Assembly (NCBI GenBank): GCA_009778475.1
Contig: WRJS01000002.1
Location: 3,836 to 67,835, forward strand
Length of the DNA stretch: 64,000 bases
Direction: 5' to 3'
DNA from: Kiritimatiellota bacterium
Lineage (GTDB): Bacteria; Verrucomicrobiota; Kiritimatiellia; RFP12; UBA1067
The notes beneath the pieces were generated by a model, which worked only from the letters and a program-made list of their open reading frames with translations, searched no databases and was not told where the DNA came from. Of the stretch, positions 4,103 to 50,751 are shown piece by piece (within the stretch, counting starts at the first letter, position 1; every line of letters begins with the position of its first letter). The position numbers and the translations under genes are program-made.

Positions 4103-4124
4103 GGCAAACGATGTCCGATGGCAT

Positions 4125-4753: not shown

Positions 4754-4781
4754 GTAACATACTCGCTTTCCATGATGTTTT

Positions 4782-6169: not shown

Positions 6170-6250
6170 ACTATTTAGAAATGGTGATGCCCCTGAAAGG
6201 GTAAGAAAATAAGTTCGTTTCCATTCTGCTTACACCTTGCAATGGCATTA

Positions 6251-6442: not shown

Positions 6443-8360
<1,918 letters not shown>

Positions 8361-8585
8361 TCAGAAAGTGATTATCATACCTGTTTTGCCCTGCTACCGC
8401 AAACAAAACCACAGAGGTCTCTCTATTTTTTTATCCACAGATGACAGCGTGTGTTGCCGCGAGATAAGGGTAACACCTCGAGCCTCTATGGAATGCGGCG
8501 GGTTCCCCTTTGACCTTTGTGCCTTTGTGTGAGATTATTCATCCACGTTTGGTCTCCGCGCGAAAACACCTTGGGCATGAAGGGC

Positions 8586-25217: not shown

Positions 25218-25369
25218 GGTTGGTTTTGGGTTGGTTTGGTTGGTTTGGTCGGTTTGGTTTTTCGACTGATGGCGACTGATACCGACTGACTTCGACTTAA
25301 GTCGAACATTCGATTTCAATCGACATCAGTCGGCATCAATCGACATCAGTCGAAAAAACGATCCCTCCA
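25218..25369. repeat. family-B composite repeat element B1: (GGTT(T)G)n microsatellite + imperfect palindrome of TCGAYTGA 10-bp units centred on CTTAAG
   Basis: ggttggttttgggttggtttggttggtttggtcggtttggttttt, then cgactgatggcgactgataccgactgacttcgaCTTAAGtcgaacattcgatttcaatcgacatcagtcggcatcaatcgacatcagtcgaaaaaa. Confidence 0.75.
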
Positions 25370-26092: not shown

Positions 26093-26099
26093 GGTCTTG

Positions 26100-26262
26100 T
26101 TCCTTTCTTTTTCGTTTTGGGTTGGGGTTGATTGTTTTTTTCGATTGAAATCGACTGATGGCGACGGATGTCGATTGAAATCGAATACTCGGCTTAAGCC
26201 GAAGTCAGTCGCCATCAGTCGATTTCAGTCGAAAAAAACAATCCCCAGCGTCTCCGCCGTCC
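26100..26262. repeat. family-B composite repeat element B2 (near-perfect palindrome including flanking T7/A7 runs), overlapping the rnhB stop
   Basis: gggttggggttgattgtttttttcgattgaaatcgactgatggcgacggatgtcgattgaaatcgaatactcggCTTAAGccgaagtcagtcgccatcagtcgatttcagtcgaaaaaaacaatc. The rnhB stop (26205-26207) lies about 10 nt from the palindrome centre. Confidence 0.75.
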
Positions 26263-28436: not shown

Positions 28437-30428
28437 TCACTCCTTCTCCTTCAACTTTTTTAGCCGCTCCGTTGCCGTCTTGCGGACAACATCGCTTCTG
28501 TCTTGCGCCGCAATCTGCGCAAGCAGCGCGAGGTCATCTATATTCTCCAGTGCCGCCCCGCGCACGTATTGGTCATCCCTTGTGTTCCTCACGATTCCCG
28601 CAAGGACCGCCTGATCCGTGATCTTGGACACGGCCTCGCGGCGACCGATCATTGCCCTCGCCTCATCCTTCGCAATTTCCGCAAGGAGTGTCTGGTTGGT
28701 AAGCTCCCGCACGGCCGTGGAAGCCAACCTCGGTTCTTTGTCATTTTTTGCAAGTTCCGCGAGAAGCGCCTGATCCGTGAGTTTGCGTATTGCCATTAGG
28801 CGCACATGAATATCATACGCGTCACGTTGCGCGATTTCCGCAAGGACCGCCTGATCCGTAATCTTGCCCATGACGATGTTGCACACACTCGGCTCCTTTT
28901 CACCCTTCACGACTTCCGCAAGGGCCGCCTGATCGGTGAGTTTCGTGATTATCATACCGCGCACCTGCCCGTCCTTTTCATCTTTCGCGATTCCCGCAAG
29001 GACGGCCTGATCCGTGATTTTACTTATTGCCGTGCCGCGCACCTGCTTGTTCGTTTGCTTCTTCATGACTTCCGCAAGGGCGGCTTGATCCGTGAGTTTC
29101 CGCACGGCAATGTGACGCACCAGATCGTCCTTGTCACTTTTCGCGATACGCGCGAGGGCGGTCTGATTGTTGAGCCTGCTTGTCGCCTCCGCGCGCGCGT
29201 CTCGGTCTGTGCTTTCCTTCGCGGTTTTCAAAAGTTGTTCTTGGTCGGCGGCTTTTTCAGGGGCCGCGGGAGCAACACCCGCGCCCTCCTCCTCGGTTTG
29301 CACAGGAAGTGCGACACCCTTCTTCAATTGCTCCAGCCGTGACGCCGCCCGTAGGCGCATTTCTCTGCTTTTGTCATCCTTGGCTAATTGCGCGAGAAGA
29401 GCCTGATCTTCTAATCTCACGACAGCCTCCCAACGTATCGACCATTCTTTTTCTTTTGTCATGATTTCCGCAAGGGCGGCTTGGTCGGTGAGTTTCCGCA
29501 CGGCCGCCGAGCGTACCTGCGAGTCCTTGTCTGTCTTTGCAATCTCGGCAAGAAGCACTTGGTCTTTCAACAGTTTCACAGCCTCCCGGCGAACACTTGA
29601 ATGTTCGTCGTTTTTCGCAATCCGCGCAAGGAGAGCCTGATCCGTGAGCCTTGCCGTAGCCTCCCAGCGCATCCAAGGGTTCTTGTCCTCCGTTGCCATC
29701 TGCGTGAGGAACGCTTGGTCATCGAGTTTGGATGCCGCCTCTATGCGCACAAACACGTCCCGGTCAGTCATGAAGATCTCTTCAAGAACCGCCCGGCTAT
29801 CCAGTCTTGCCACAACCGCCCGGCGCACATCCCTATCTTCCTTCGTATCCTTGGCGATCTGCGCGAGAAACGCCTGATCCGTGATTCGAGGCAAAACCTC
29901 TAGGCGTACATCATTGTTTTTCCCGTCCCTCGCGATTTCCAGAAGAAGCGCCTCGTCCGTGATTTTGGATAACGCCTCAAAAGCAACGGGCAGACTCGAA
30001 TCGCTCTTCGCAATCTGCACAAGGAGCGCGGTGTCTTTGAGCCTGCGCACCGCCGACTGGCGCACGTTTGAATCCCCGTGCCGCTTCGCGATGTCCGCGA
30101 GAATCGCCTGGTCTTTAATCTGAAAGACCGCATGCACACGCGTCTCACTGACGTCACGCGCGGGTGTCTCCGCGACCTCTATGTTCCACACGATGTCCGC
30201 AAGGAGTGCTTGGTCTTTGATTTGGCTTACCGCAAATTGGCGCACTAAATAATCCTTGTCCGTTTTCGCGATTTGCGCAAGGCGTTTTTCATCCCTGATT
30301 GTGTGCAACTCCTCGAAACGCGCCTCCCAGCCCTCGTCATGCGTCGGGTACGGGTGGCTCCTCGCCATGCACTCGGAAGCCCCTGCCAGCAGAGCGAAGA
30401 GCAGCAGCAGATGTGTGAAGCGTCTCAC
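28437..30428 (-). CDS. secreted HEAT-repeat (PBS-lyase HEAT-like) protein with about 20 tandem ~31-aa repeats
   Basis: Signal peptide MRRFTHLLLLFALLAGA. Repeats of the form ...VR.AAV.KLTDQALLAEIAKNDK.... Confidence 0.7.
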   Translation of the reverse strand: MRRFTHLLLLFALLAGASECMARSHPYPTHDEGWEARFEELHTIRDEKRLAQIAKTDKDYLVRQFAVSQIKDQALLADIVWNIEVAETPARDVSETRVHAVFQIKDQAILADIAKRHGDSNVRQSAVRRLKDTALLVQIAKSDSSLPVAFEALSKITDEALLLEIARDGKNNDVRLEVLPRITDQAFLAQIAKDTKEDRDVRRAVVARLDSRAVLEEIFMTDRDVFVRIEAASKLDDQAFLTQMATEDKNPWMRWEATARLTDQALLARIAKNDEHSSVRREAVKLLKDQVLLAEIAKTDKDSQVRSAAVRKLTDQAALAEIMTKEKEWSIRWEAVVRLEDQALLAQLAKDDKSREMRLRAASRLEQLKKGVALPVQTEEEGAGVAPAAPEKAADQEQLLKTAKESTDRDARAEATSRLNNQTALARIAKSDKDDLVRHIAVRKLTDQAALAEVMKKQTNKQVRGTAISKITDQAVLAGIAKDEKDGQVRGMIITKLTDQAALAEVVKGEKEPSVCNIVMGKITDQAVLAEIAQRDAYDIHVRLMAIRKLTDQALLAELAKNDKEPRLASTAVRELTNQTLLAEIAKDEARAMIGRREAVSKITDQAVLAGIVRNTRDDQYVRGAALENIDDLALLAQIAAQDRSDVVRKTATERLKKLKEKE

Positions 30429-36039: not shown

Positions 36040-36091
36040 TGGAGGGCGTTTTGAGGCACAGGATTAATTTAACAGGATTGGCTTTTTACCA

Positions 36092-36141
36092 CAATGGACA
36101 CGATGGTTTTCACATGATAGGCACAAGAATCGTGTCCATTG
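36092..36141. promoter_or_regulatory. perfect 13-bp inverted repeat CAATGGACACGAT-N24-ATCGTGTCCATTG between the LuxR gene and tpsB
   Basis: Read directly; candidate regulator operator or terminator of the LuxR gene. Confidence 0.45.
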
Positions 36142-36166
36142 CGGTTAGAAGAAAACGGGGGATTTT

Positions 36167-36184
36167 TTGACAGGGTTGACAGGG
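36167..36184 (+). promoter_or_regulatory. tandem direct repeat TTGACAGGG TTGACAGGG (two -35-like hexamers)
   Basis: Read directly, upstream of tpsB. Confidence 0.35.
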
Positions 36185-36239
36185 TTGGTTTTACACGGCG
36201 ATGGGCGCAATGGAGGCGCGCGGCGTGTCTTGAAAAAAA

Positions 36240-36340: not shown

Positions 36341-38758
36341 ATGAATGTATTTTCTCGTGGACGGTGGACGTGGGGCGTCGGCGCCCGTTTGATGGGGGCG
36401 CTGGCGTGTGTGTGTTTGGGCGCGGTGGCGCTGGCGGCGGCGAAGGCGCCGGAGCGTGAGGAGGTGGCGCAGGCGCTGGAGGGGACGCAGCATAAGCGGC
36501 TGGACGCGAAGTCGGCGCTGCGGTTCTTCCAGTTGGTGACGGCGTTCGACGAGGCGACGAACAAGGTCGCGGTCGCGGCGGCGGCGTATGCGGAGGCGGC
36601 GGTGAAGGCCCAGTCGCTGGAGGCGGAGCACGCGGAGCGGTTCGGGCTGGACCCGTCGAAGCAATACCTCTATGAGCACGCGAGCGGGAAACTGTTCCGG
36701 CTGGAGGTGCAGGACGGCAGGCCGCCGAAGGTGGTGCGCATCGCGGAGCGGCGGATGGAGCCGGAGGAGGGCAAGGCGTACCTCGCGGCGCAGGGCGCGC
36801 GGGTGGAGGCGATCGCGGGCCAGCAGGCGGCGACGGAGGTCATCGCGGCGGAGGAGGCCGCGGCGGCGGCGGCGCTGGTGGCGCTGCGCAAGGAGTTCGG
36901 CGTGGATGACCATGCGTGGGCGGACCTGTACCTCGTGCCGGGGCGCACGGATGTGATGCTGGTGCAGGGGCGGTACCCGGTGCTGCCGCCGGTGCCGGTG
37001 GTGCCGACGAAGGACGGGGAGGTTCCGGCGGGGACGTTCTGGGTGCATGGCGTGAATTTCGCGTTCCCGGAGGGGAGCGGGCGGGTGATGGCGCGGCTGG
37101 CGGATGCGGCGGCGCGGCTGGACGCGGCGGCCCCGGCGGAGCTGACGCATGAGTCTGAGGAGTGGGGCAAGGAGCAGGTGGAGGTCGCGGACTTGGCGGC
37201 GGTGCTGCGCAAGGGGCGCGTGTCGGTGGGCGAGGGCGCGGTGGCGGTGCGCTCGCAGGTGCGCAACGGGGAGTTCGTCGCGCCGGGGTCGGTGATGCCG
37301 GCGGTGTCGAACCTGCTGGAGTCGGTGCGCGCGTCGGGCTTCTACATCGCGGGGCTGAGCCGCCCGATCGAGCCGCCGGTGGACGGCGTGCTGACGGTGC
37401 ATCTGGACCCGGGCAGGGTAGGGGACGTGACGGTGGCGTTTCAGGGCAAGGACGGCGAGGAGGGCGAGCCGTCGGAGACGGGGCGCTGGTTCTCGGGCGA
37501 TCAGATCCGGCGCAACTTCGAGCGTTCGGCGCCGGGGCGGCCGTTCAATTACGGTGCGCTCTATGACGCGCTGGCCGGGGTGAACGAGAACCCGGACCTT
37601 GCGGTGGACACGGATGTGAAGGTCCGGCAGGAGCAGGGCGAGGACGGCGCGGTGTCGCGCGTGGCGGACCTGAAGTTGGACGTGCGCGAGTCGATGCCGA
37701 TCCACGGGGCGGTGCAGGTGGGCAACGACGGGAGCAAGCAGTCGGGCAACTGGTGGGCGGGCGCGTCGCTGCGGCACCACAACCTGACGCGGCACGAGGA
37801 TATCCTTTCGGTGGAGGCGCAGGTGGCGCTGAAAGACGCGTCGATGTGGGCGGTGCAGGGCAGTTACCTCTTGCCGCACAGCCTGTGGCTCGGCGGGACG
37901 ATCGGGGTCTATGGCGGGTATTCGGAACTGAACATCAATGACTTGGTGCCGGACATCGGCGTGAGCGGGATGGGCAAGTACGTGGGCCTGCGCTTGTCGC
38001 AGCGTCTGCTGGAGACGCGGATGCACCGCATTGAGTTGGCGCTCGGGCAGACGTTCCGCTGGACGACGGAGAATCTGGAGTTCGCCGGGTACGCCGTGGA
38101 CAAGCGCGACGCGATGATCGCGCCGTATTATGTGCAGTTGCTCTGGCAGCAGAAGATGCTGGACGCGCTGGCGGGGCGTACGTTCGCGATGCTGGAGGCG
38201 TCGCACAATTTCAAGGGCTGGCTCGGCACGCCGTCGGATCTGGATTCGCTGCGCATCGGGGCGGACGGGGATTATACGGTCGGGCGCGCGCAGGTGGCGC
38301 GTCTGCAGGCCCTGAGCAAGGGGTCGGGCGACGGGCTGGATTCGCGCTGGACGCTGTTCGCGCGGGCGACGGGGCAGGCCTCGGATTCGCCGCTGGTGGC
38401 GATGGAGCAGTTCGGGCTGGGCGGGATGTCCACGGTGCGCGGTTATGCGGAGCGCGAGTTGCTGGGCGACAGCGCGTTGTTCGCGTCGCTCGAGGTGCGC
38501 ACGCCGGTGCTGCGCCTGTTTGACGACCTGAAGGACCGCTTGCAGTTCGTGGCGTTCCTCGACTCGGGCTGGGCGGACCTGCGCAACACCCAGCCGGGCG
38601 AGGACGGCGACACGTACCTGCTGAGCGCGGGCCTCGGGCTGCGCTACGCGGTGTGGAAGAACGCGATGCTGCGTTTCGACTGGGGCTTCCCGCTCGAGAA
38701 GACGTTTGACTCGGACAGCAAGGGGCGCGGGCACCTGAACCTGCAACTTCAATTTTAA
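36341..38758 (+). CDS. two-partner secretion outer-membrane transporter TpsB (ShlB/FhaC family) with an unusual ~260-aa Ala-rich N-terminal extension
   Basis: POTRA-like region, GGMSTVRGY signature, beta-barrel with alternating hydrophobics, terminal ...LNLQLQF (C-terminal Phe). Signal peptide present. The minus-strand 807-aa ORF is shadow. Confidence 0.8.
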   Translation: MNVFSRGRWTWGVGARLMGALACVCLGAVALAAAKAPEREEVAQALEGTQHKRLDAKSALRFFQLVTAFDEATNKVAVAAAAYAEAAVKAQSLEAEHAERFGLDPSKQYLYEHASGKLFRLEVQDGRPPKVVRIAERRMEPEEGKAYLAAQGARVEAIAGQQAATEVIAAEEAAAAAALVALRKEFGVDDHAWADLYLVPGRTDVMLVQGRYPVLPPVPVVPTKDGEVPAGTFWVHGVNFAFPEGSGRVMARLADAAARLDAAAPAELTHESEEWGKEQVEVADLAAVLRKGRVSVGEGAVAVRSQVRNGEFVAPGSVMPAVSNLLESVRASGFYIAGLSRPIEPPVDGVLTVHLDPGRVGDVTVAFQGKDGEEGEPSETGRWFSGDQIRRNFERSAPGRPFNYGALYDALAGVNENPDLAVDTDVKVRQEQGEDGAVSRVADLKLDVRESMPIHGAVQVGNDGSKQSGNWWAGASLRHHNLTRHEDILSVEAQVALKDASMWAVQGSYLLPHSLWLGGTIGVYGGYSELNINDLVPDIGVSGMGKYVGLRLSQRLLETRMHRIELALGQTFRWTTENLEFAGYAVDKRDAMIAPYYVQLLWQQKMLDALAGRTFAMLEASHNFKGWLGTPSDLDSLRIGADGDYTVGRAQVARLQALSKGSGDGLDSRWTLFARATGQASDSPLVAMEQFGLGGMSTVRGYAERELLGDSALFASLEVRTPVLRLFDDLKDRLQFVAFLDSGWADLRNTQPGEDGDTYLLSAGLGLRYAVWKNAMLRFDWGFPLEKTFDSDSKGRGHLNLQLQF

Positions 38759-38916
38759 GGGACGCGGGGACTATGATGATGGCGATGGGACTACAGGACT
38801 ACGGGACACCGGGACTACGGGGCGGGGACTGCGGGACGCGGGGACACACGTTCCGTCGTCCCGAAATCGCAGTCCTGTCGTCCAGAGTCCGTCGTCCCCA
38901 AAATGAGGAGAACAAA
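38759..38916. repeat. family-A intergenic element A1 (GGGAC-tract / GTCCC-tract imperfect palindrome)
   Basis: gggacgcggggac...gggactacaggactacgggacaccgggactacgggg...ccgtcgtcccgaaatcgcagtcctgtcgtccagagtccgtcgtcccc, followed by GAGGAG-N7-ATG of tpsA. Confidence 0.7.
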
Positions 38917-41900
38917 ATGAAGGTTTTCAATTTCTTTCGTGGACGGATGTCGCGCGTCATTGCCGCGCTGGCGCTGTGGGGCCTGCTGGCGCCGATGGGC
39001 GCGTTCGCGTTGCCGCAGGGCGGCAGCGTCCGCTCGGGCGATGTGTCGTGGGGCAGTTCAGGCGGCACGATGACGGTCAACCAGCAGTCGGCGCGCGCGA
39101 TCATCAACTGGAACACGTTCAGCATCGGCAGCACGGAGACGGTGCAGTTCAACCAGCCCGACGCGAGCGCGGCCATCCTGAACCGCGTGACGGGGCCGTA
39201 CTCGAGCGACATTTTCGGCAGCCTGCTGGCGAACGGCAACGTCTATCTCATCAACCCCAACGGCATCCTCTTCGGGGCGGGCGCGCGCATCAACGTGGGC
39301 GGGCTCGTGGCCTCGACGTTCGACATCTCGGACGATGACTTCAACCTCGGGAAACTCGACTTCAAGAACACGGGCAATTCCGGCAAGGTGGTGAACCGCG
39401 GCAGCATCTCGGCCGCGTCGTTCGCGTACCTGATCGGCGCGGGCGTGGAGAACCACGGCACGATCACAACCCCGGCCGCCGCGCTGGCCGCGGGGCACAG
39501 CCGGATCGTGATCGACCGCACGGCCATGGGCGGCGAGATCCGCCTGAGCGTGGACGCGGACATGGCGCCGATCTCCTTCACGACGTTCGACGCGCCGCAG
39601 GGCATGGCCAACGTCATCAACACGGGCGTGATTGACGCCTCGGGCGCGACGGGCGGCGACGTGGCCTTGCAGGGCGTGAACGTCGTGCAGTCCGGCACGA
39701 TCCGCGCAGACGGCATCGAGGGCGACGGCGGGCGCGTGCGCCTCTTCGGCGAACGCCTCGTCACGCTGGGCAGTGACAGCGTGACCACCGCGAACGCGGG
39801 GCGCGCGGGCGACGGCGGGCGCATCGAACTCATCTCCAGGGATTTCCTCGGCGTGTACGAGCGCGCCTACATCGCGGCGCGGGGCGGGACCCTGCGCGGC
39901 AACGGCGGCTTCGTGGAGACGAGCGGCCACGAGCGTTTCGTCATCGAGGCCGCGCCGGACGTGGGCGCGTACAACGGGCGCGGCGGCGAGTGGCTGATCG
40001 ACCCGCGCGACATCACGATCGTCGCGGTCGGCGACGAGGGGTGGGTGTGGAACGACAACGATATGTTCGCCCTCTGGGACAACACGAAGATTAAGGTCGC
40101 GGACATCCTCTCGGGCTTGGCGAACGGCGACGTGACCATCCACACGGGGACGGACGGAACGGCGGACGGCGACATCCATGTGAACGCGGACATCGGCTAT
40201 GCCATCCATCCCGGCACCACGCTGACGCTGGACGCGGCGCGGGACGTCAACCTCAACGCCAACGTCACGGCCGGCGCGGACAACACGCTCGGCCTCACCG
40301 CCGGGCGCGACGTGAACCAGAACAACGGCAACGTGCAGGTCGGCACGGTGGATTTCGACGTGGCGGGCGATGTCACGATGACAAGGCCGGACAACCGCAT
40401 CGGGACGCTCACGGGGACGGTCGGTGGCAACCTCGACCTCGCCAACAACCGCACGCTCAACCTCGACGGCCTGCGCGTCGCGGACGGCACGACCACGCTC
40501 AACGTCAACGGCGACCTCACGGATGCGGGCGCGAACACGCTTGCGGATCTGACCGTGCGCACGACGGGCGACATCGTCCTCGACGCGGCCAACGACTTGG
40601 GCGCGGTCACCGCCAACGCCAACAACGGCAAGGGCAGCATCACGCTCCGCGACGCGGCGGGCGACCTCAACGACGACGGCATCGTCCTGCGCAACATCGA
40701 CGGCGGCACGCTCACCGTCATCGCGGACGACGGCAGCATCACCCAGCAGGGCGGCACGCGCGTCCAGATTCTGGCGGACGCGGACGCGGGGATTTCGGGC
40801 GCGACCGACCTGACCGCGGCCGACCAGATCACTCTCTTTAATAGGAGAAACGATTTCGGCGGGCCCGTGAGCGCACGCGCGGCGGGCATCCAGTTGCGCG
40901 ACCGCAACAGCATCGTCCTCGACGAGATCGTCGCGGGCGTGGACGGGCTGACGGTGCGCACGGACCGCGGCGCCATCACGCAGATGGACGGTTACCCGGC
41001 CATCAGCGTCTTGGGCGAGACGCGCCTCACCGCGCGTAACGGTCGGCGCCCGGCGGACATTCTCCTCGAGAACGGGTTCAACAATTTCGTCGGCGCGGTC
41101 CATGCCGACGGCCGCAACATCGCGCTCACGGATGTGGACAGCATCCGCCTCGGGCGCATCGACGCCACGCGCACGCTCACCGTCCATGCGGACGGCGGCG
41201 ACATCACGCAGACGCCCGACGGCGTGCGGGTGCGGGGCGAGACCACGCTCTTCGCCACGGGCGACATCACGCTCGACAACCCCGTCAACGATTTCATCAA
41301 CGGCCCCGTCCACGCCAAGGGCATCAACATCGCGCTCACCGACGCCAACGACATCCTGCTCGGGCGCGTCGAGGCCGGCAACGCCGACGTGCGCGGCACG
41401 CTCGACGTGATCGCGCTCGACGGCGACATCACGCAGACGGCCGACGGCATCCTCGCGACGGGCGAGGCCACCTTCACCGCCGAGGGCAACGCCATCGCGC
41501 TCGGCGAGGCCGCGAACGATTTCCAGGACACCGTGAACGCCTACGCCAACGACGTCACCCTCACCGACGGCGCGGGCGGCATCAGCATCGGCCGCGTCAA
41601 GGCGCTGGCCGACCCCGGCGACGAGACGGCCGCGGAGACGGTCGTCATCACCGCGCTCAACGGCGGCATCACGGACGCGCAGCAGGAGACCGTCGGGCAT
41701 GACGCGGAGGGCTTCGCCACGATGGACGGGCCGCGCATCGTCAACATCATCGCCAACAACCTGCTGCTGCTCGCGGACGGCGACATCGGCGCGGTCGGCA
41801 CACCGCTGGACATCAACGCCGGGACATTGGCGGCGCGTTCGCTCGGCGGCAGCATCTGGCTGTTCGACTCCGGCGCGCTGACCCTCGGCACGGTCAACGG

Positions 41901-44802
41901 CATCGCGGGGCTCACGGCGGCGAACCATGCGAAGGTGGAGACCCTCAACGGGCCGCTCACGGTTGACCAGCGCGTTCTGGCGGGTGGCGACGTGTTGCTC
42001 GCCGCCAACGGCCCCGGCTCGGACGTGACGCTCAACGCCTTGGCTGCGGCGGTCGGGAACCTCACGGTGCTGGCGGCGCGGGACGTCGCGCAAAATGCGC
42101 TTCTGGCGGCACGGCAGACGGTTGACGTCGAGGCCAAGGGCGGGGCCGTCACCATGGGCGGCGGCGCCGCGACGGTCGGCGGCACGGTCGCCTACTACAC
42201 GGCGGGCGACATGGCCGTGACGCGCATCGCGGGCGGCAACGTCCGCCTCGAGGCGGAAGGCAGCATCACGGACGCGAACCTGAACAACGCGCCGAACATC
42301 CTCGCGCAGAACGCCCAACTCGTGGCGGGCGGCTCGGTCGGCGGCGCGGGCGGCACGGAGAGCGACGCCAACCCGCAGGCGCTCAACACCATCGTCGGCA
42401 CGCTGGCGGTGGACGCGGGCCAGAGCGCTTACATCCGCAACACGGGCAATCTGGAAATCGGCGCGGTCGCGCCCATCAACGTCAACCGCGTCGCGCTGGA
42501 CAGCACCACCACGCCGCTTGCGGGGGACGCGCTGTCCGGCGCGACCGCCGGGAACAACCTGAAAATCCTCAACACGCGCGGCGCACTCAACGTGACCTCC
42601 GGCGTGACCGCGCGGGACGGCGACCTCCTGCTGTGGGCGCAGCGCGGCGCGTTGGACATCGGCGCGGACGTGACGGCGGGGAACCTGCTCACGCTCGCGG
42701 GCGAGGGCGTCCGCCTCGGCGCGGGCCTGCTGGCGGGCGGCGACCTGTCCGTGAACGCCGGGGGCGGCAGCCTCACGCTCGGCGCGGGCTATTCGATTGA
42801 CGCGGGGAGCGCGCGCCTGACGGCCGACGGCGACATCGCGCTCGACCGCATCACCGCGCGTGACGTGGTGAGCGTCGTGGCGGGCGGCGACATCACCGAC
42901 GCGAACGCGGACGACACCGCGAACATCACGGCGGCGCGCGTGCGCCTGCAGGCGAGCGGCAGCATCGGCTCGGGCGACGGCGAGGAGAGCGACGCGAACC
43001 CCACGGCGGTGAACGTTGCGGCGGGCAACCTCGAGGCCATCGCCGAAGGCAACATCTATCTGCAGGCGGAGGGCGGCCTGACCATCGGCGGGGTAGGGGA
43101 CGTGACCCTCTCCGAGGCGCGGTTTGACAGCGGCGCCACCATGGCCGTGCGCGACACGGACCTGACGGGCGTGACGGCGGTCAACGGCGTGGCGAAGATC
43201 AAGGCCGGCGCGTTGACGGTGGACGAGGGCGTCACCGCCGGGACCGACGCGCTGCTGCTCACGACCGAGGGCGACCTCACGCTGAACGCGGCGCTGAACG
43301 CGGTCGGCATGGCGTCGCTCTTCGCGGCGGGCAACCTCAACCAGAACGCCGACATCACCGCGGGCGGCGACATCTTCCTCAGCGGCGCGAGCATCCTGAC
43401 GGCCAGCGGCATCGCGCTCCACGGCGACAACGTGCGCTATGCGTCCACGCTCGACGCGCTCATCGGCAACATCACCGCGAACGGCCTCGTGAACATCGTC
43501 GCCGGGCGCGACATCATCGACGCCAACCACGACAACGCGGCGAACATCGTAGCCGACCGCATCCGCCTCGAGGCGGGCGGCTCTGTCGGCAGCGCGGCCG
43601 ACGCGCTGGACATCGAGGCCAACACCGTCGCCGTGCAGGCTACGGGCGAGGCGTACCTGCGCTCACAAGGCGACATCACCATCGGCCGCATCGAGCAGGT
43701 GGAGACCGACTACGCGCGCTTCGACAGCGGCACCACGACCGTGATCGACCCGCCGCTGGCGGGCCTCACGACGGGCGGCAACGCCTCGCTGGTCTCCGTC
43801 AACGGCAACATCGGCCAGACGACGGGCGGCGATGTGTTTGTCGGCGGCACGACGCGGCTGGAGGCCCGCAACGGCGACGTCACGCTGGAGAACGCGAACA
43901 ACGATTTCGTCGGCCAGGTGGACGGCGTGGCGCGGAACATCTACCTGCGCGACCGCAACGACCTCTTCGTCGGGCAACTCGCCGCCAACGGTCACGTCCG
44001 CCTCACGGCCGCGGGCAGCATCCTCGCGGCGCAGGGCTACCCCAACGTGATCGCCGGGACCGCGGAGTTTTACTCGGGCCGCGACATCGGCCACCCGCTC
44101 TACATCAGCGTGGGCACGATCATCAACGCCATCGCCGGGGGCAACATCTCCCTCACGCAGGTCTCGGGCAACATGAACATCCTCGGCCAGGTCTATGCCG
44201 GGGGCAACGTGCGCCTCGACGTGCTGCACGGCGGCATCGTTGACGCCGACGGCGACGGCTACGTGCCGCCGTGGCGCGTCACGCCCGACAACGCCGACAT
44301 CTATTCCGGCGGCACCATGACGCTGATCGCGGACTTCGTCGGGACGCTGCGCGAGCCGGTGGAGATCATCGCGGGCCGCGGGCTGTGGCTGGGGTCGCAC
44401 CGCCCGCCCGCGCCGCCAAACGGCGCGTTCCCGTGGGTGGTCGTCAACGGCCGCGTCGGCGGCGGCGCACGCAACATCCACGTCAACCAGAGCGGCGTGC
44501 CGGGGCTGGTGATTTACAACGGCCAGCCGATCTGGGGGCCGTGGTGGACGATGCGGCAGTTCCAACTGGCCCAGCGCTCGCTCGCGGACAACGACCAGCC
44601 CAACCTGCTGGACAGCGGCATCGTCAAGTTGCCGTGGTTCCTGCACCCCGACATGAGCCTCCTCTCCCCCGCCCCCGTGCGCGACGACCTGCGCGAGGCC
44701 GAGGAGAAGGGGATCACGGGGCTGGACGAGGACCTCCCCGAGGACGCGCCGCGCACAAAGGCCCTCGGCCTGCCCGTGACGATGATGGGGGGAGGACGGT
44801 AG
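38917..44802 (+). CDS. TpsA-type exoprotein (filamentous haemagglutinin-like) with N-terminal TPS secretion domain
   Basis: Extended signal peptide, then PQGGSVRSGDVSWG...ARAIINWNTFSIGSTETVQFNQP...ILNRVTG...ANGNVYLINPNGILFGAGARINVGGLVAST, a near-textbook FhaB/ShlA TPS domain. About 1700 aa of beta-helical Gly/Asp/Asn-rich repeats follow. No VENN motif. Confidence 0.88.
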   Translation: MKVFNFFRGRMSRVIAALALWGLLAPMGAFALPQGGSVRSGDVSWGSSGGTMTVNQQSARAIINWNTFSIGSTETVQFNQPDASAAILNRVTGPYSSDIFGSLLANGNVYLINPNGILFGAGARINVGGLVASTFDISDDDFNLGKLDFKNTGNSGKVVNRGSISAASFAYLIGAGVENHGTITTPAAALAAGHSRIVIDRTAMGGEIRLSVDADMAPISFTTFDAPQGMANVINTGVIDASGATGGDVALQGVNVVQSGTIRADGIEGDGGRVRLFGERLVTLGSDSVTTANAGRAGDGGRIELISRDFLGVYERAYIAARGGTLRGNGGFVETSGHERFVIEAAPDVGAYNGRGGEWLIDPRDITIVAVGDEGWVWNDNDMFALWDNTKIKVADILSGLANGDVTIHTGTDGTADGDIHVNADIGYAIHPGTTLTLDAARDVNLNANVTAGADNTLGLTAGRDVNQNNGNVQVGTVDFDVAGDVTMTRPDNRIGTLTGTVGGNLDLANNRTLNLDGLRVADGTTTLNVNGDLTDAGANTLADLTVRTTGDIVLDAANDLGAVTANANNGKGSITLRDAAGDLNDDGIVLRNIDGGTLTVIADDGSITQQGGTRVQILADADAGISGATDLTAADQITLFNRRNDFGGPVSARAAGIQLRDRNSIVLDEIVAGVDGLTVRTDRGAITQMDGYPAISVLGETRLTARNGRRPADILLENGFNNFVGAVHADGRNIALTDVDSIRLGRIDATRTLTVHADGGDITQTPDGVRVRGETTLFATGDITLDNPVNDFINGPVHAKGINIALTDANDILLGRVEAGNADVRGTLDVIALDGDITQTADGILATGEATFTAEGNAIALGEAANDFQDTVNAYANDVTLTDGAGGISIGRVKALADPGDETAAETVVITALNGGITDAQQETVGHDAEGFATMDGPRIVNIIANNLLLLADGDIGAVGTPLDINAGTLAARSLGGSIWLFDSGALTLGTVNGIAGLTAANHAKVETLNGPLTVDQRVLAGGDVLLAANGPGSDVTLNALAAAVGNLTVLAARDVAQNALLAARQTVDVEAKGGAVTMGGGAATVGGTVAYYTAGDMAVTRIAGGNVRLEAEGSITDANLNNAPNILAQNAQLVAGGSVGGAGGTESDANPQALNTIVGTLAVDAGQSAYIRNTGNLEIGAVAPINVNRVALDSTTTPLAGDALSGATAGNNLKILNTRGALNVTSGVTARDGDLLLWAQRGALDIGADVTAGNLLTLAGEGVRLGAGLLAGGDLSVNAGGGSLTLGAGYSIDAGSARLTADGDIALDRITARDVVSVVAGGDITDANADDTANITAARVRLQASGSIGSGDGEESDANPTAVNVAAGNLEAIAEGNIYLQAEGGLTIGGVGDVTLSEARFDSGATMAVRDTDLTGVTAVNGVAKIKAGALTVDEGVTAGTDALLLTTEGDLTLNAALNAVGMASLFAAGNLNQNADITAGGDIFLSGASILTASGIALHGDNVRYASTLDALIGNITANGLVNIVAGRDIIDANHDNAANIVADRIRLEAGGSVGSAADALDIEANTVAVQATGEAYLRSQGDITIGRIEQVETDYARFDSGTTTVIDPPLAGLTTGGNASLVSVNGNIGQTTGGDVFVGGTTRLEARNGDVTLENANNDFVGQVDGVARNIYLRDRNDLFVGQLAANGHVRLTAAGSILAAQGYPNVIAGTAEFYSGRDIGHPLYISVGTIINAIAGGNISLTQVSGNMNILGQVYAGGNVRLDVLHGGIVDADGDGYVPPWRVTPDNADIYSGGTMTLIADFVGTLREPVEIIAGRGLWLGSHRPPAPPNGAFPWVVVNGRVGGGARNIHVNQSGVPGLVIYNGQPIWGPWWTMRQFQLAQRSLADNDQPNLLDSGIVKLPWFLHPDMSLLSPAPVRDDLREAEEKGITGLDEDLPEDAPRTKALGLPVTMMGGGR

Positions 44803-45220
44803 GGAGAGTGTGGAGAGTGGAGGGTGGAGAGTGGAGTTGCGAAGGGACGATGGGACAAGGGGACGCAAGGACGATGATGATGGCGGATTTGGGGACTACG
44901 GACTACAGGACTACAGGACTACGGATTGGGGACGAAGGGACGCAAGGACAGTGATGATGGCGGAGGGACTACAGGACTACGGGACTACGGGACTACGGCT
45001 TTCGGGACGTGGGGACGCGGGGACATGGGGACAGCGGCTGCTTAAAAGCCGTTGTCCCGTTGTCCCGTGTCCCGTCGTCCCGAAAGCCGCCGCCGCCGTC
45101 CCCTCGTCCCCTCGTCCCCCCACAACTCCACTCTCCACACTCCACTCTCCACACTCCTCTTTCCACACTCCACTCTCCACCCTCCACTCTCAACACTCGC
45201 CCCACCGTCCCCTCGTCCCG
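44803..45220. repeat. family-A element A2: ~400-bp composite imperfect palindrome (GGAGAGTGGAG arms, GGGACTACGG repeats, G4 motif, 12-bp stem hairpin, CCCGT tracts)
   Basis: Left arm gagagtgtggagagtggagggtggagagtggag pairs with right arm ctccactctccacactccactctccacactcc. Core gggacgtggggacgcggggacatggggacagcggctgcttaaaagccgttgtcccgttgtccc. Internal duplication of a gatgatggcgga..ggactacgg module. Confidence 0.8.
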
Positions 45221-45223
45221 ATA

Positions 45224-47533
45224 CTGCTGGCGGTCGTGTTGGCGACCCACGTCGCCAGCGCGGAGCCAGACTGGTTCTTTGAGACTACGGCGCGGACGTT
45301 TGTCACGAACAGCGCGGGGTGGCGGTTTGCGGCGACGGCGAATGCCGGGGCGGGGACGCTCAACGTCGGCGTGTGCAGCCGTGCGCCGGACGTGGCGGGG
45401 GTGCTGGATTTCTCGGGCGGGGTCTCGGACGAGGTCAACGGCACGGGCAACACGTTTGACATCGTGGCCATCAACGGCTCGGTGCTGGGCTCGGCCTCTT
45501 CGGCGTACATCCCGAAGGCGTCGGGGCTCGTCCTGCCCTCCACGCTCACGAACCTCGCCGCCAACGCCTTCAACGCCTGTACCAACATGACGGGTTCGCT
45601 CGTCCTCCCCGACGGCGTGGTCTCCATCGGCAACTACGCCTTCCAGAACTGCCGCTTCACGGGTGCGCTCGTCCTCCCCGACAGCGTGACCTCCATCGGC
45701 AACTCCGCCTTCAGCGGCTGCGCCTTCGGTGGCTCGCTCGTCATCCCCGACAGCGTGACCTCCATCGGCAACTACGCCTTCAGCGGCTGCCCCTTCGGCG
45801 GCTCGCTCGTCATCGGCGACGGCGTGACCTCCATCGGCTACAGCGCCTTCAATGGCAACACCTTCTCGGGCAGCGTCACCTTCGGGGCGGGCCTCGTGGA
45901 CTTCGGCAACTATATTTTCTGCAACACCACCTTCGACGTCCGCACGCTCACCTTCCCCGACACCGCCAAGAGCATCGGCAACGCCTTCAACCTTAGCGGC
46001 AACGCGAACCTCCACGCCACGTTCGTCAACACCTCCCTCGTCCTCGGCGACGGCGTGACGAACATCGCCGCGTATGCGTTCCACACCACCGGGCTGACGG
46101 GGACGCTGACGCTCGGCACCAACCTCCACGCCATCGGCGACTACGCCTTCCGCGACTGCAAGATTACGGGCGGCCTCGCCGTCCCCGACAGCGTGAGGAC
46201 TGTCGGCTCCTACGCCTTCAGCGGTGGTGGCTACACGGGGACGCTGACGTTCGGCACGAACCTCCTTGCCATCGGCAACAACGCCTTCCAGAACTGCAAG
46301 TTCACGGGCGACCTCGTCCTCCCCGACAGCGTGACCTCCATCGGCAACAACGCCTTCGACGGTTGCGCGTTCAACGGGAAACTCCACATCGGCTCCACCG
46401 CGACCTGCGCCATCGGCACCTACGCCTTCCAGAACAGCCCCTTCGGCGGCTCGCTTCTCATCGGCGACGGCGTGACCTCCATCGGAACGCGCGCCTTCAA
46501 CGGCAACACGTTCTCCGGCTCCGTCACCTTCGGGGCAGGCCTCGTGAACTTCAACAACACCATCTTCTGCAACACCGCCTTCGACATCCCCCTGCTCGTC
46601 ATCCCCGATACCGTCAAGAGCATCGGCGACGCCTTCAGCAGTGGCAGCACCTCGTCCTACCGCGCCACGTTCAACGGCGCCACCCTCTTCCTCGGCGACG
46701 GCGTGACCAACGTCGCCGCGAGCGCGTTCCGCTATTGCACCGGGCTCGAGCGCATCTCCTCCCCCTCCACCGACATCGCCATCGGCAACTACGCCTTCCA
46801 AGCGACATCGTTGCGGGGAGTCTACTACCGGGGCGGCTACCCCAAGAGCGTCGGGGCGACCCTCTACTACGGTTCCTCCGCCTGCACCTCCTACGTCACC
46901 CGCGCCAGCGTCGCCGACTGGGAATGGTTCACGGGGCTCGACATCCTCGGCGGCGCCGCGACATGGCAAGCCAAGCCCATCCGCGTCGCCGACGCCGACG
47001 ACCTCCCCGGCATCCTCGCCCTCGACCCCATGGGCGGCTACGGCGGCGCCACCACCGCCCGCCTCGGCGGCGACGGGCAACTGCCCCCCGGCCTCGCCGC
47101 CCCACGGCGCGACAACATGATCTTTGACGGCTACTGGGATGCGCCGCAAGGTAGCACTATGTACCTCGCGCCCGACATGACGCCGTGCGCCGCGTGGCCC
47201 GACCCCAACGGCGGCAAACTCTACGCCCGCTGGACTGACCTCGAAGACGAGGACTTCCAGTCGATATGCATTGAGGCGATCGAGGTCTTGGAGGACGGCG
47301 ACGTGGCGCTTTTCTGGAACCGCGACCGCGTGAAGTTCACGTACACGAAGGAGCCTTACACGGTCGTCGTTCAGGGCGCGGAGGACCTTGCCGGGTGGAA
47401 TGTGTTGGAGGAGGGCGGCGACTACACCCTCGACACCGCGCCGAACCCGCGCCGCCTCCACAAGGCGCGGGTCACGCCCCCCGCCGGAGCGACGAGGGGG
47501 TTCTTCAAGGCTTGGGCGCAGAGGGATGAATGA
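45224..47533 (+). CDS. BspA-type leucine-rich-repeat surface protein (start codon uncertain)
   Basis: Repeated LVLPDSVTSIGNYAFSGC / LVIPDSVTSIGN.AF.GC units (LRR_5/BspA-like). A hydrophobic LVPILLAVVLATHVASA segment precedes them. No in-frame ATG after the palindrome (candidate CTG/GTG/TTG at 45224-45241). The in-frame ORF back to GTG 44810 would translate the repeat element. Confidence 0.6.
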   Translation: MLAVVLATHVASAEPDWFFETTARTFVTNSAGWRFAATANAGAGTLNVGVCSRAPDVAGVLDFSGGVSDEVNGTGNTFDIVAINGSVLGSASSAYIPKASGLVLPSTLTNLAANAFNACTNMTGSLVLPDGVVSIGNYAFQNCRFTGALVLPDSVTSIGNSAFSGCAFGGSLVIPDSVTSIGNYAFSGCPFGGSLVIGDGVTSIGYSAFNGNTFSGSVTFGAGLVDFGNYIFCNTTFDVRTLTFPDTAKSIGNAFNLSGNANLHATFVNTSLVLGDGVTNIAAYAFHTTGLTGTLTLGTNLHAIGDYAFRDCKITGGLAVPDSVRTVGSYAFSGGGYTGTLTFGTNLLAIGNNAFQNCKFTGDLVLPDSVTSIGNNAFDGCAFNGKLHIGSTATCAIGTYAFQNSPFGGSLLIGDGVTSIGTRAFNGNTFSGSVTFGAGLVNFNNTIFCNTAFDIPLLVIPDTVKSIGDAFSSGSTSSYRATFNGATLFLGDGVTNVAASAFRYCTGLERISSPSTDIAIGNYAFQATSLRGVYYRGGYPKSVGATLYYGSSACTSYVTRASVADWEWFTGLDILGGAATWQAKPIRVADADDLPGILALDPMGGYGGATTARLGGDGQLPPGLAAPRRDNMIFDGYWDAPQGSTMYLAPDMTPCAAWPDPNGGKLYARWTDLEDEDFQSICIEAIEVLEDGDVALFWNRDRVKFTYTKEPYTVVVQGAEDLAGWNVLEEGGDYTLDTAPNPRRLHKARVTPPAGATRGFFKAWAQRDE

Positions 47534-47725
47534 GGCATGAGAAGTGTGGAGAGTGGAGTTGCGCAGGGACGAAAGGATGATGACGATGACGATGACGGAT
47601 TTTGGGATTACGGACTACAGGACACCGGGACTACGGCTTTCGGGGCGTGGGGACGCGGGGACATGGGGACAGCGGCTGCTTAAAAGCCGTTGTCCCGTTG
47701 TCCCGCCGTCCCAGCGTCCCAAACC
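47534..47725. repeat. family-A element A3; ~90-bp core nearly identical to A2 (44985-45073 vs 47620-47708)
   Basis: gaagtgtggagagtggagttgcgcagggacga...gggactacggctttcggggcgtggggacgcggggacatggggacagcggctgcttaaaagccgttgtcccgttgtcccg, then AGGAG-N8-ATG of the next gene. Confidence 0.8.
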
Positions 47726-47750
47726 CTGTTAATTTTTAGGAGAAAACGTT

Positions 47751-48743: not shown

Positions 48744-48805
48744 TGGGTTGATTTTTCGACTGAAGTCGAGTGAAATCGACTGAGGGCGACTGAAATCGGG
48801 TTAAG
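48744..48805. repeat. family-B element B3 (truncated: GGGTTGATTTTT + TCGACTGA units + GTTAAG centre, right arm missing)
   Basis: gggttgatttttcgactgaagtcgagtgaaatcgactgagggcgactgaaatcgggttaagtcgag. Confidence 0.65.
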
Positions 48806-48826
48806 TCGAGCATTTGGAGAGAAATT

Positions 48827-50605: not shown

Positions 50606-50751
50606 GGGGAGACTTTATGGAAAGCGGGACTACGGGACGACGGACGACGGGACTACGGCTGGGGACGATGGGACGCGAGGACGCGGGGACTGTTTGTCGT
50701 CCCGTAGTCCCGGCGTCCTGTGTCCCGAGAAATCGAATTTGGAGGAAAAAC
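50606..50751. repeat. family-A element A4
   Basis: gggactacgggacgacggacgacgggactacggctggggacgatgggacgcgaggacgcggggactgtttgtcgtcccgtagtcccggcgtcctgtgtccc. The left gggactacgggacgac pairs with the right gtcgtcccgtagtccc. Confidence 0.7.

Follow-up and report, generated by a model that had tools for sequence, protein, structure and literature searches.

A G-quadruplex motif beside a hairpin in a Kiritimatiellia secretion operon probably reflects a fast-evolving family of intergenic repeats

Introduction

Does a G-quadruplex (G4) motif that runs directly into a hairpin between two bacterial cistrons constitute an RNA switch, or can it arise without being selected as one? The question is raised by a locus in a 64,000-nucleotide stretch of a Kiritimatiellia genome (hereafter, the window), in which GGGACGTGGGGACGCGGGGACATGGGG and a 12-bp hairpin occupy positions 45004-45058 and recur, with one substitution, at 47642-47696. 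A preliminary description made from the sequence alone proposed that the G-tracts either pair with downstream C-tracts or form an RNA G4 (rG4), thereby providing a structural switch between the stop and start codons of highly expressed secreted proteins. Our analysis points, with modest confidence, to a different explanation: the motif probably belongs to a lineage-specific, fast-evolving family of intergenic repeats, and is not a dedicated RNA switch.

Results

The motif and its two copies

The G4 motif and hairpin together form a 55-nt string (GGGACGTGGGGACGCGGGGACATGGGGACAGCGGCTGCTTAAAAGCCGTTGTCCC) that is found exactly at 45004-45058 (copy A) and with a single mismatch, GGGAC to GGGGC, at 47642-47696 (copy B); it had no matches in shuffled versions of the window. 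This result confirms the two near-identical copies of the preliminary description, at positions which differ by one base from those given there. G4 prediction was also borne out, with the canonical pattern (G3+N1-7 x4) present on the sense strand at 45004-45030 and 47642-47668. The principal features are as follows.

45004..45030, plus strand: canonical G4 motif of copy A, G3 N4 G4 N4 G4 N4 G4, in the inner part of the 5' arm
45028..45058, plus strand: apical hairpin of copy A, 12 bp including one G-U pair, with a 7-nt loop (GCUUAAA)
47642..47668, plus strand: G4 motif of copy B, four GGGG runs, a 4-layer G4 of -27.6 kcal/mol by model

The hairpin does overlap the G4 motif, and its C-rich arm competes for the same G-tracts. 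In copy A the apical stem is formed by 45028-45039 paired with 45047-45058. The A-to-B substitution converts an A-U pair to G-U and, in the ViennaRNA gquad model, lifts the G4 from three layers (isolated energy -6.2 kcal/mol in copy A) to four. The "second G4-capable run" reported nearby reads AGGACTACGGGACTACGGGACTACGG (44973-44998) and contains two G3 runs only, so that it has no canonical G4 of its own. The window as a whole holds 14 canonical G4 motifs on its two strands, compared with 4.8 +/- 2.2 in dinucleotide shuffles, and six of the 14 fall within the repeat elements described below.

The motif lies at the tip of long imperfect palindromes

The two copies flank a gene of a two-partner-secretion/BspA-LRR operon, defined by TpsB and TpsA (36341..44802, plus strand).

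36341-38758, plus strand: TpsB (ShlB/FhaC-type)
38917-44802, plus strand: TpsA (TPS domain)
45224..47533, plus strand: BspA-type LRR protein gene, flanked by elements A and B

The flanking genes encode secreted or surface proteins, as had been stated, but the description of these as highly expressed found no support from any tool. At both sites the G-run makes up the inner 5' arm of a much longer imperfect palindrome (44803-45223 and 47534-47750), in which 8-nt units are repeated in tandem, as GGGACNNN in the left arm and as NNNGTCCC in the right, together with 7/14-nt GGAGAGT/CTCCACT units.

44803..45223, plus strand: composite palindrome A, ~420 nt, -250.7 kcal/mol, z = -9.1
45001..45085, plus strand: core hairpin of copy A, ~33 bp, -67.8 kcal/mol, z = -10.6
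47534..47750, plus strand: element B, from the LRR gene stop to the start of a 330-aa gene, homologous to A
47642..47720, plus strand: core hairpin of copy B, -65.5 kcal/mol, z = -9.3

The octamer reads GGGACTAC or GGGGACGN and is arranged in period-8 head-to-tail arrays with a G3-4 tract per unit and no internal pairing within units. Palindrome A takes up the whole interval from the TpsA stop codon to the signal-peptide h-region of the LRR gene. Its left arm comprises GGAGAGT units, two 77-nt higher-order modules (each GGGACNNN x3, GATGATGATGGCGGA and GGACTACN x4) and GGGGACNN x4, and its right arm NNNGTCCC units, GAAAGCC and CCACACTCCACTCT x5.6. The core hairpin of copy A is a succession of short helices (mostly 3-12 bp) with small internal loops between them. 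Relative to A, element B is without one 74-nt module and the distal right arm. The arrangement first described is thus the tip of an imperfect hairpin of 33 bp (B) or ~160 bp (A). Because the arms of palindrome A are imperfectly complementary (78-93%), an assembly artefact is unlikely; copy A was seen in one assembly alone. Copy B was found unchanged in L006, an independent 2.1-kb ENA contig recovered by exact-protein lookup with the 330-aa protein.

Related elements occur elsewhere in the window, and not all of them are G-rich.

38759..38916, plus strand: GGGAC/GTCCC palindrome in the TpsB-TpsA gap, G4 motif at 38803-38827, z = -4.2
50606..50751, plus strand: GGGAC/GTCCC palindrome between a 592-aa gene and a ~3100-aa gene, z = -4.8
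60058..60144, plus strand: short GGGAC array, hairpin not significant (z = +0.7)
62598..62710, plus strand: GGGAC/GTCCC palindrome in the signal peptide of a PPIase lipoprotein, G4 motif at 62621-62648, z = -5.6
48744..48826, plus strand: array whose 10-nt units are of the TCGACTGAAG type, in the gap from the 330-aa to the 592-aa gene, hairpin not significant (z = -1.8)
25218..25369, minus strand: TCGACTGA/TCAGTCGA palindrome plus TGGTT array separating two minus-strand genes, sense-strand z = -9.5
36083..36190, plus strand: CACAATGGACAC palindrome plus TTGACAGGG repeats upstream of TpsB, z = -4.9
8337-8585: CCTTTGTG-type element

The elements at 38759, 44803, 47534, 50606, 60058 and 62598 are of the GGGAC type, while those at 25218, 36083, 48744 and 8337-8585 are built from other units. 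Rfam covariance models returned only miRNA-precursor look-alikes at the elements, below threshold. A scan for intrinsic terminators detected no terminator-like site or U-run at any element, and A-rich linkers follow the hairpins. Complementarity of GGACTAC to 16S rRNA (~800-806) was rejected as coincidence, since this stretch, presumably helix 24, is base-paired.

Repeat arrays are found at every junction of the two-partner-secretion/BspA-LRR operon and in three other co-directional gaps. Across the 64-kb window elements occupy 10/13 co-directional gaps versus 0/5 divergent or convergent gaps (Fisher p = 0.0065), and their position inside transcription units suggests that they are probably transcribed with the operon. 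A Shine-Dalgarno sequence and ATG lie 5-17 nt past the hairpins, and at four of the six GGGAC-type junctions (38759, 47534, 50606 and 60058) the tract sits between the stop codon and the Shine-Dalgarno sequence. The remaining two run into coding 5' ends: element A into the LRR gene, and the 62598 palindrome, in frame, into the N-terminal region of the lipoprotein signal peptide.

The elements turn over rapidly among relatives

At the TpsA to 330-aa gene junction, no G-tracts are present in L007, L009, L134 or L011. This position is instead taken in L009 by a 450-nt palindrome of CACAGATTA/TAATCTGTG units and in L134 by CACAGAG/CCTTTGTG units, and there is no such repeat in L007 or L011. The G-tracts, whose conservation at orthologous loci the preliminary description had made a touchstone of its proposal, are thus not conserved. 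Compared junctions in relatives have either a 10-57 nt spacer, a longer repeat-free spacer, or palindromes of unrelated A/T-rich units; the TpsB-TpsA gap is 158 nt in the window versus 10-15 nt in L009 and L134, and the gap from the 592-aa gene to the giant gene is 146 nt versus 24-41 nt in L007, L009, L134 and L011. The close strains L010 and L009 encode an identical 333-aa protein next to repeat regions of ~1080 and ~450 nt, respectively. Element B is identical in L006, and the 48744..48826 array has the same sequence in L006 and L133, showing that these elements are not hypermutable on short time scales.

The same types of element also appear at non-orthologous sites. The CACAATGGA type is present in the window and in L060, which holds a homologue of the 36083 palindrome, and the CCTTTGTG type is shared by the window (8337-8585) and L134. 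Two metagenome contigs, L018 and L073, have a GGCTTT-GGGGACG junction in common. Scanning the contigs of representative genomes for the GGACNNNGGGACTACGGCTTT pattern gave only 5 matches, which were single and unrelated. Within the window, 79 nt of B (47627-47705) differ from A (44989-45067) at one position, inside ~200 nt of collinear homology, which suggests copying or gene conversion besides slippage in situ.

These observations would also be expected of a non-autonomous mobile element (REP/REPIN- or MITE-like) that would spread from one intergenic site to another through a transposase whose gene lies elsewhere in the genome. The near-identity of A and B, the recurrence of element types at non-orthologous sites and in other metagenome contigs, and the presence of differing families at the same junction in relatives are all consistent with this idea, as is the intrusion of two elements into coding 5' ends, which resembles the behaviour of REPs and RPEs. 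Parallels are offered by the GTAG- and CGTC-tagged REP/BIME and REPIN sequences (Di Nocera et al. 2013; PMC3733652), which are likewise intergenic palindromes located mainly between co-directional or convergent genes, in clustered and inverted arrangements with occasional in-frame insertion into genes, and with G-T pairing that suggests structure at the RNA level. The complementary-strand units GTAGTCCC and CGTCCCC even contain the GTAG and CGTC tags (PMC3733652), but here they appear in every unit rather than as one terminal tag. Moreover, a REP is 20-40 bp long with its own stem-loop, whereas the 8-nt units have none and a hairpin arises only from opposed arrays. The elements are without defined termini, target-site duplications or constant length, copy-number differences amount to differences in unit number, as slippage predicts, and Pfam identified no Y1/RAYT or other transposase among the scanned window ORFs, although a RAYT gene may be present in another part of the genome. 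We consider a mobile element of this kind unlikely, even if occasional site-to-site copying forms part of the repeat-family explanation that we prefer.

Competition between the hairpin and the G4

A second alternative is that the elements are functional bistable RNAs, in which the G-tracts would pair with the C-arm or form an rG4 and so tune translation or stability of the secreted-protein cistrons. A broader form of the same idea treats the GGGAC-octamer arrays as functional RNA modules, either a bistable rG4 or a platform for a GGA/GGAC-binding protein, that would set how much each cistron yields relative to the others in giant adhesin operons. Mechanistically, the surplus of G-units would permit a 3-4-layer rG4 while the C-arm re-pairs with back-up units.

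The folding calculations depend strongly on the element and on the sequence included. For the core alone, the hairpin is ahead of the G4 by 47 (A) and 21 (B) kcal/mol, from which it first appeared that the hairpin always wins. This view was dropped after whole spacers were folded with the G-run sequestered, although the energy of a 4-layer G4 is itself an extrapolation in this model. In the full spacer the G4 state lies +17.8 (A) and +0.6 (B) kcal/mol above the hairpin, the latter because the C-arm re-pairs with spare upstream GGACUAC units. Comparable values were obtained for 38759 (+1.3 kcal/mol) and for L073 (+0.9 kcal/mol), and in the L137 spacer the G4 state is the minimum-energy fold. 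By this model the two states of B are within 0.6 kcal/mol of each other, and in A the hairpin leads by 17.8-47 kcal/mol; the full-spacer model favours the hairpin by 10-23 kcal/mol in A, 50606 and 62598.

Several further observations suit a bistable RNA. Canonical G4 motifs are on the sense strand in four of the six GGGAC elements, the one difference between A and B happens to take the G4 from 3 to 4 layers, and similar repeats from Xanthomonas and Nostoc form G4 in vitro (PMC4692102). The sense strand also carries an excess of G-units at 8/9 junctions (G:C unit counts of 9:5, 19:9, 7:4, 8:4, 2:1 and 4:4 in the window, and 13:0, 18:0 and 5:2 in relatives). Hairpin formation by itself gives no account of this asymmetry, so that the G-array may have a role of its own. 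The repeat-family explanation, for its part, draws support from the strand of the structure: in 6/7 window elements RNA of the sense strand folds more stably than the antisense RNA. L009, in which the antisense strand folds better, counts against it.

Set against this, the G-rich strand is sense in 17 and antisense in 16 cases among the >120 metagenomic GGGACTAC arrays, and conservation does not single out the G-tracts, with 37/49 G3 runs intact as against 22/27 C3 runs in the partner arm (p = 0.77). The orthologous junction is free of G-tracts in four relatives, spacers of 10-57 nt are the rule at most other compared junctions, and unit families which are not G-rich share the architecture at equivalent sites. 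Control of the translation start also fares poorly: the minimum-energy hairpin of copy B leaves the downstream Shine-Dalgarno sequence and start codon unpaired, and in the modelled G4 state the Shine-Dalgarno sequence is again unpaired with only a weak outer 5-bp helix reaching the start codon, such that a switch would have no clear output. We regard the bistable RNA as rather improbable, and hold the broader proposal of functional modules to be equally doubtful.

Reading frames and gene order

Simple-sequence contingency loci of surface-protein genes offer another comparison, since here as there adhesin and lipoprotein genes carry short tandem units at their 5' ends. By analogy, gain or loss of 8-nt or 7-nt units, whose sizes are not multiples of 3, could shift the frame, so that the LRR adhesin and the lipoprotein, both surface proteins, would be phase-variable. 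The LRR gene has neither a start codon nor a Shine-Dalgarno sequence adjoining its signal-peptide h-region; where its homologue P0140 starts with MKLMDTRIASVAVAVLL, the window ORF passes straight from the repeat into the h-region. (P0140 was the only informative homologue for the signal peptide, the search with the LRR N-terminus being swamped by LRR-repeat matches.) The LRR frame is open upstream to ATG 44953 and GTG 44810, the lipoprotein ATG at 62598 precedes its palindrome in frame, and repeat lengths differ between L009 and L010. An open frame nevertheless carries little information here, because the repeats are open in all frames. For the same reason the upstream in-frame ATGs (38773, 44953, 50617, 62598) are uninformative, and the three or four of five that are in frame do not reach significance. 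It is improbable that an extension of 90-130 aa ahead of a signal peptide would function, neither B nor 48744 varies from sample to sample, and four of the six GGGAC-type arrays lie outside both ORF and promoter, between a stop codon and a normal Shine-Dalgarno/ATG, where unit number would not switch the frame. Unit number could set the frame only at 62598 and possibly in the LRR gene. Phase variation is accordingly very unlikely to be what these repeats are for.

A DNA-level recombination site (attC-like or inverton-like) for cargo exchange between TpsA and the 330-aa gene is the least probable reading: the slot does differ in content (the LRR gene in the window, a 2976-aa protein in L007, none in L009 or L134, and a KilA-N gene as upstream neighbour in L137), A and B are homologous and bracket the LRR gene in direct orientation, and structure is kept where sequence is not, as in attC sites, but the same elements occupy junctions with invariant gene order, no integrase, invertase or recombinase domain was detected among the scanned window ORFs, and no attC core sites were noticed in the sequences read.

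Discussion

A repeat family as the probable source of the motif

The explanation that we favour is an intergenic repeat family in which tandem 8-nt GGGACNNN units would be followed by a shorter inverted NNNGTCCC array, as one of several families with differing units that appear to fill the co-directional gaps of this Kiritimatiellia genome. Slippage, unequal recombination and occasional copying from site to site may have generated them, and they would not be conserved regulators. The G4 motif follows from unit composition, each unit having GGG or GGGG. With about twice as many units in the G-arm as in the C-arm there are spare G-units, and a G4 becomes possible in some copies without being a selected feature.

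What the elements do at the RNA level we can only infer. They are probably cotranscribed with the operon, and the structures predicted for them are long, imperfect intercistronic hairpins that leave the downstream ribosome-binding site free, except for the two elements running into coding sequence. The most likely effect would be a generic one, as a barrier to 3'-exonucleases or a substrate for a double-strand RNase, uncoupling neighbouring cistrons; equally, they may have no effect. Intercistronic processing and stabiliser hairpins include the RNase III sites of phage T7 and the malE-malF REP stabiliser. These resemble our elements in being imperfect hairpins with internal loops between cistrons, upstream of a free ribosome-binding site, but the hairpins here are far longer and are not conserved, so the analogy is functional only.

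Relationship to known repeats

Among known repeats, the nearest to these elements are the G-rich, G4-capable heptamer simple sequence repeats (SSRs) that occur, inverted pairs included, in Xanthomonas (GGGAATC) and in Nostoc (GGGGA(C/T)T, STRR type) (Rehm et al. 2015; PMC4692102). Both they and the Kiritimatiellia repeats consist of tandem short units with a G3-4 tract each, dispersed between genes (as judged in the window only for our elements), mostly between aligned ORFs and near the upstream stop, and rarely between divergent ORFs. They share frequent convergent inverted pairs in which a stem-loop could compete with the G4, a competition already raised for the inverted repeats of Xanthomonas (PMC4692102), and strong variation in length and sequence among close relatives. 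Because the unit is an octamer (GGGACNNN) and not the 7-nt GGGAATC or GGGGAYT, we class the Kiritimatiellia repeats as a variant and not a member of this group. They differ further in their host, a member of the PVC group, in their 77-nt higher-order modules and arrays of up to ~420 nt, in coexisting with non-G-rich families of the same architecture, and in the extension of two elements into signal-peptide coding sequence. The sense-strand excess of G-units at 8/9 junctions is also unlike the heptamers, which show no preference for the coding strand, being about evenly distributed in Xanthomonas and preferring the non-coding strand in Nostoc (PMC4692102).

Pneumococcal BOX elements (boxA-boxB(n)-boxC; Croucher et al. 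2011; PMC3049150) are similar in being intergenic, modular and variable in how many internal modules they contain, and in having transcripts predicted to form long stable hairpins. However, BOX modules are 45-59 nt long, unrelated in sequence and bounded by defined terminal modules, whereas the elements described here have no fixed ends. Literature searches on short-unit palindrome families in uncultured Kiritimatiellia found nothing, and several such families are, it appears, documented here for the first time.

Implications

If the repeat-family explanation is correct, this locus exemplifies how repeat families can mimic designed RNA switches, since a G-rich tandem unit with an inverted copy automatically gives a "G4 next to a hairpin". 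Should the bistable alternative prove true, copy B would be a tractable natural system for testing the use of an rG4 switch in bacteria, and if the arrays are functional modules then stable rG4s would be tolerated, or even put to use, by bacterial mRNAs here. In relatives the operon junctions which the palindromes fill measure only 10-60 nt, and the palindromes vary more than two-fold in length between strains with identical flanking proteins, which matters for models of how operon mRNA is processed and for breaks in metagenome assemblies. It matters equally for gene calling, through false N-terminal extensions and missing starts.

A 323-aa ORF called within the L010 repeats was rejected as a coding repeat; it is of low complexity and stays open only through the 9-nt periodicity.

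The flagged motif lies at the centre of two long palindromes

The 55-nt string given in the preliminary description, in which a canonical G-quadruplex (G4) motif adjoins a hairpin, was found exactly at 45004-45058 and recurs at 47642-47696 with a single substitution (GGGAC to GGGGC). In a motif scan both copies, A and B, fit the G3+N1-7 x4 definition; the apical stem comprises 12 bp, including one G-U pair, with a 7-nt loop. The supposed second G4-capable run fared less well: the true string (AGGACTAC...) is one base off that reported and alone is not a canonical G4. Both strands of the window hold 14 canonical G4 motifs (4.8 +/- 2.2 in dinucleotide shuffles), 6 of them within the repeat elements. 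Every base of copy B is the same in an independent ENA contig (L006); palindrome A is known from one assembly.

The region 44790-45240 folds as a single long imperfect hairpin (-250.7 kcal/mol, z = -9.1), with the G-run of copy A as its inner 5' arm. Copy B also gives a long imperfect hairpin (-90.6 kcal/mol, z = -4.9), and the core hairpins folded alone reach z = -10.6 (A) and -9.3 (B). The arms are tandem repeats of period-8 units (GGGACNNN left, NNNGTCCC right) and period-7/14 units (GGAGAGT left, CTCCACT right), and the left arm contains 2.3 copies of a 77-nt higher-order module. Homology between A and B spans ~200 nt; a single 74-nt module is missing from B, as is the distal right arm. 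Their 79-nt centres differ at one base, where pairing is retained as G-U.

Short-unit arrays occupy gaps between co-directional genes

A Pfam scan of the products of the two-partner-secretion operon other than its ~3100-aa protein identified a ShlB-type TpsB, a TPS-domain TpsA and a BspA-type LRR protein, and gave no family for two other operon proteins; further products are a cadherin-like protein and a PPIase lipoprotein. A short-unit array is present at all junctions of this operon, and three more lie in other co-directional gaps.

Short-unit arrays at operon junctions
38759-38916, GGGAC units
44803-45223, GGGAC units (element A)
47534-47750, GGGAC units (element B)
48744-48826, TCGACTGAAG units
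50606-50751, GGGAC units
60058-60144, GGGAC units
62598-62710, GGGAC units

Short-unit arrays in other co-directional gaps
8337-8585, CCTTTGTG units
25218-25369, TCGACTGA/TCAGTCGA palindrome and TGGTT array
36083-36190, CACAATGGA palindrome, upstream of TpsB

Within the 64-kb window, which sets the genomic scope here, arrays occur in 10 of 13 co-directional gaps and in 0 of 5 divergent or convergent ones (p = 0.0065). Hairpins are significant for most arrays (z = -4.2 to -10.6), those at 48744 and 60058 being not significant by folding z. Where elements are wholly intergenic, the following gene has its Shine-Dalgarno sequence and ATG 5-17 nt past the hairpin.

Two elements run into coding 5' ends. 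In the BspA-LRR gene at 45224 the h-region of the signal peptide is entered straight from the repeat, with neither a start codon nor a Shine-Dalgarno sequence adjoining it (44803-45240). The homologue P0140 has the N-terminus MKLMDTRIASVAVAVLL...; its ~10 first codons are absent from the window gene, where the repeat takes their place, and the LRR frame is open upstream through the entire palindrome, to ATG 44953 and GTG 44810. The GGGAC/GTCCC palindrome at 62598-62710 lies in frame in the n-region of the PPIase lipoprotein signal peptide, before the lipobox LLICGC, and the ATG of this gene overlaps the upstream stop codon (TGATG).

A GATGATGATGGCGG(A)-like motif, which offers an ATG or a TGA depending on the frame, recurs on the left side of GGGAC elements (38773-38785, 44875-44887, 44951-44964 and 47574-47597, and in the compared contigs L073 and L137, in the latter immediately after a stop codon). 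Ahead of the radical-SAM gene (minus strand, start 25217) the sense strand carries a C/A-rich, (AACC)n-like repeat ~45 nt long (25218-25262), and no Shine-Dalgarno sequence is visible there.

Architecture recurs in relatives

Going by the source names of its homologues, the 330-aa protein places the organism in Kiritimatiellia. The TpsB-TpsA spacer is 158 nt in the window and 10-15 nt in contigs L009 and L134. Between the 330-aa and 592-aa genes the window has 83 nt as against 16-26 nt in L007, L009 and L011; L134 has 56 nt with related TCGAGTGCA units, and L137 a GGGAC array. The 592-aa/giant gene spacer measures 146 nt against 24-41 nt (L007, L009, L134, L011), and in L073, where the flanking gene is 78% identical, this junction holds a G-rich array without a C-arm. 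At the junction from TpsA to the 330-aa gene, where the window carries A and B on either side of the LRR gene, no repeat of this kind was found in L007 and L011; L009 has a 450-nt palindrome of CACAGATTA/TAATCTGTG units and L134 has CACAGAG/CTTCGTG/CCTTTGTG units. On this comparison the architecture recurs, and the sequence and G-tracts do not; the G-tracts are not kept at orthologous loci, which counts against the proposed switch.

The same slot varies in its cargo: the LRR gene in the window (44803-47750), a 2976-aa FGE-sulfatase/RCC1 protein in L007 (590-10001) and no cargo gene in L009 and L134, while in L137 (114-1192) a KilA-N gene instead precedes a 329-aa gene. L009 and L010 encode an identical 333-aa protein downstream of repeat palindromes of ~450 nt (9549-10001) and ~1080 nt (1486-2565), with two and four core hairpin copies, respectively. 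The gene caller rendered the longer region as a 323-aa 'protein'.

Competition between G4 and hairpin

The preliminary description read the motif as a potential RNA structural switch. With the ViennaRNA G4 model, whose parameters are approximate, above all for four layers, the G4 state of the core alone is worse than the hairpin by 47 (A) and 21 (B) kcal/mol. Because the G-arm has about twice the units of the C-arm (GGAC:GTCC = 9:5, 19:9, 7:4, 8:4), the C-arm can re-pair with spare G-units in the whole spacer.

Energy of the best G4-containing structure minus that of the minimum-energy fold (kcal/mol, approximate parameters)
Whole spacer B, +0.6 (4-layer G4 within the loop of an alternative hairpin)
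Whole spacer 38759, +1.3
Whole spacer 50606, +9.7
Whole spacer A, +17.8
Whole spacer 62598, +23.0
L073, +0.9
L137, -6.3

These gaps make competition plausible for B and not for A. The switch reading is partly supported, through the plausible physical competition in copy B; signs that such a switch is conserved or regulates anything were not found. G3 runs are not better kept than C3 runs (37/49 vs 22/27, p = 0.77). The sense RNA fold is more stable than the antisense in six of seven window elements; the reverse holds in L009. G-rich units outnumber C-rich ones on the sense strand in 38759-38916, 44803-45223, 47534-47750, 50606-50751, L073 and L137, with totals of 49 GGAC vs 27 GTCC in the window and 13:0 and 18:0 in relatives, an excess accounted for by none of the explanations tested.

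Most likely the elements form a family of short-unit inverted repeats, specific to the lineage and quick to evolve, whose transcripts are predicted to fold into hairpins between cistrons; the composition of the repeat units would give rise to the G4 motif incidentally.

Relation to known repeats

An Rfam search and terminator scan of the elements returned no family and no terminator signature, and the scanned ORFs of the window yielded neither a transposase nor a recombinase. The closest description, by Rehm et al. 2015 (PMC4692102), concerns G-rich heptamer repeats of Xanthomonas and Nostoc, which are intergenic, mainly between aligned ORFs, form G4 in vitro, vary among close species and are without known function; Xanthomonas has 70-75 convergent inverted pairs per genome, and competition between stem-loop and G4 was raised explicitly (PMC4692102). 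REPs resemble the window elements in their location, in G-T pairing and in being inserted within genes, but are 20-40 bp stem-loop units (PMC3733652), which the window repeat units are not.

A metagenome scan with GGGACTACGGGACTACGG gave at least 120 loci, for which gene calls are crude. Most of the matches listed are tandem arrays that are non-coding and lack a C-rich counterpart, and ~12 are palindromes, G-first or C-first, frequently adjoined by arrays of other units; the G-rich strand is sense or antisense about equally (17 vs 16).

Tandem GGGACTAC arrays occur in >120 contigs (L013-L132; G+C 42% to 70%), mostly non-coding, with CAAAGTC, GGTCAGA, GCTGAAA and GGGCAGA units as frequent neighbours. 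A TTTTTACCACAATGGACAC... palindrome type is common to window 36083-36150, upstream of TpsB, and the unrelated contig L060 (100-190), where it adjoins C-first GTCCC/GGGAC palindromes duplicated ~370 nt apart.

Other features of the window

A low-G+C island at 4001-6200 (0.48 vs ~0.66 elsewhere) codes for a protein with an HNH endonuclease domain, alongside ORFs that have no Pfam family, and is probably acquired DNA. A 78-nt tandem repeat (28894-29101, 2.7 copies) lies within the minus-strand gene of a HEAT-repeat protein. The protein encoded at 25370-26215 (minus strand) carries a topoisomerase-type zinc ribbon and matches, below threshold, the domain of the 23S rRNA intervening-sequence protein.
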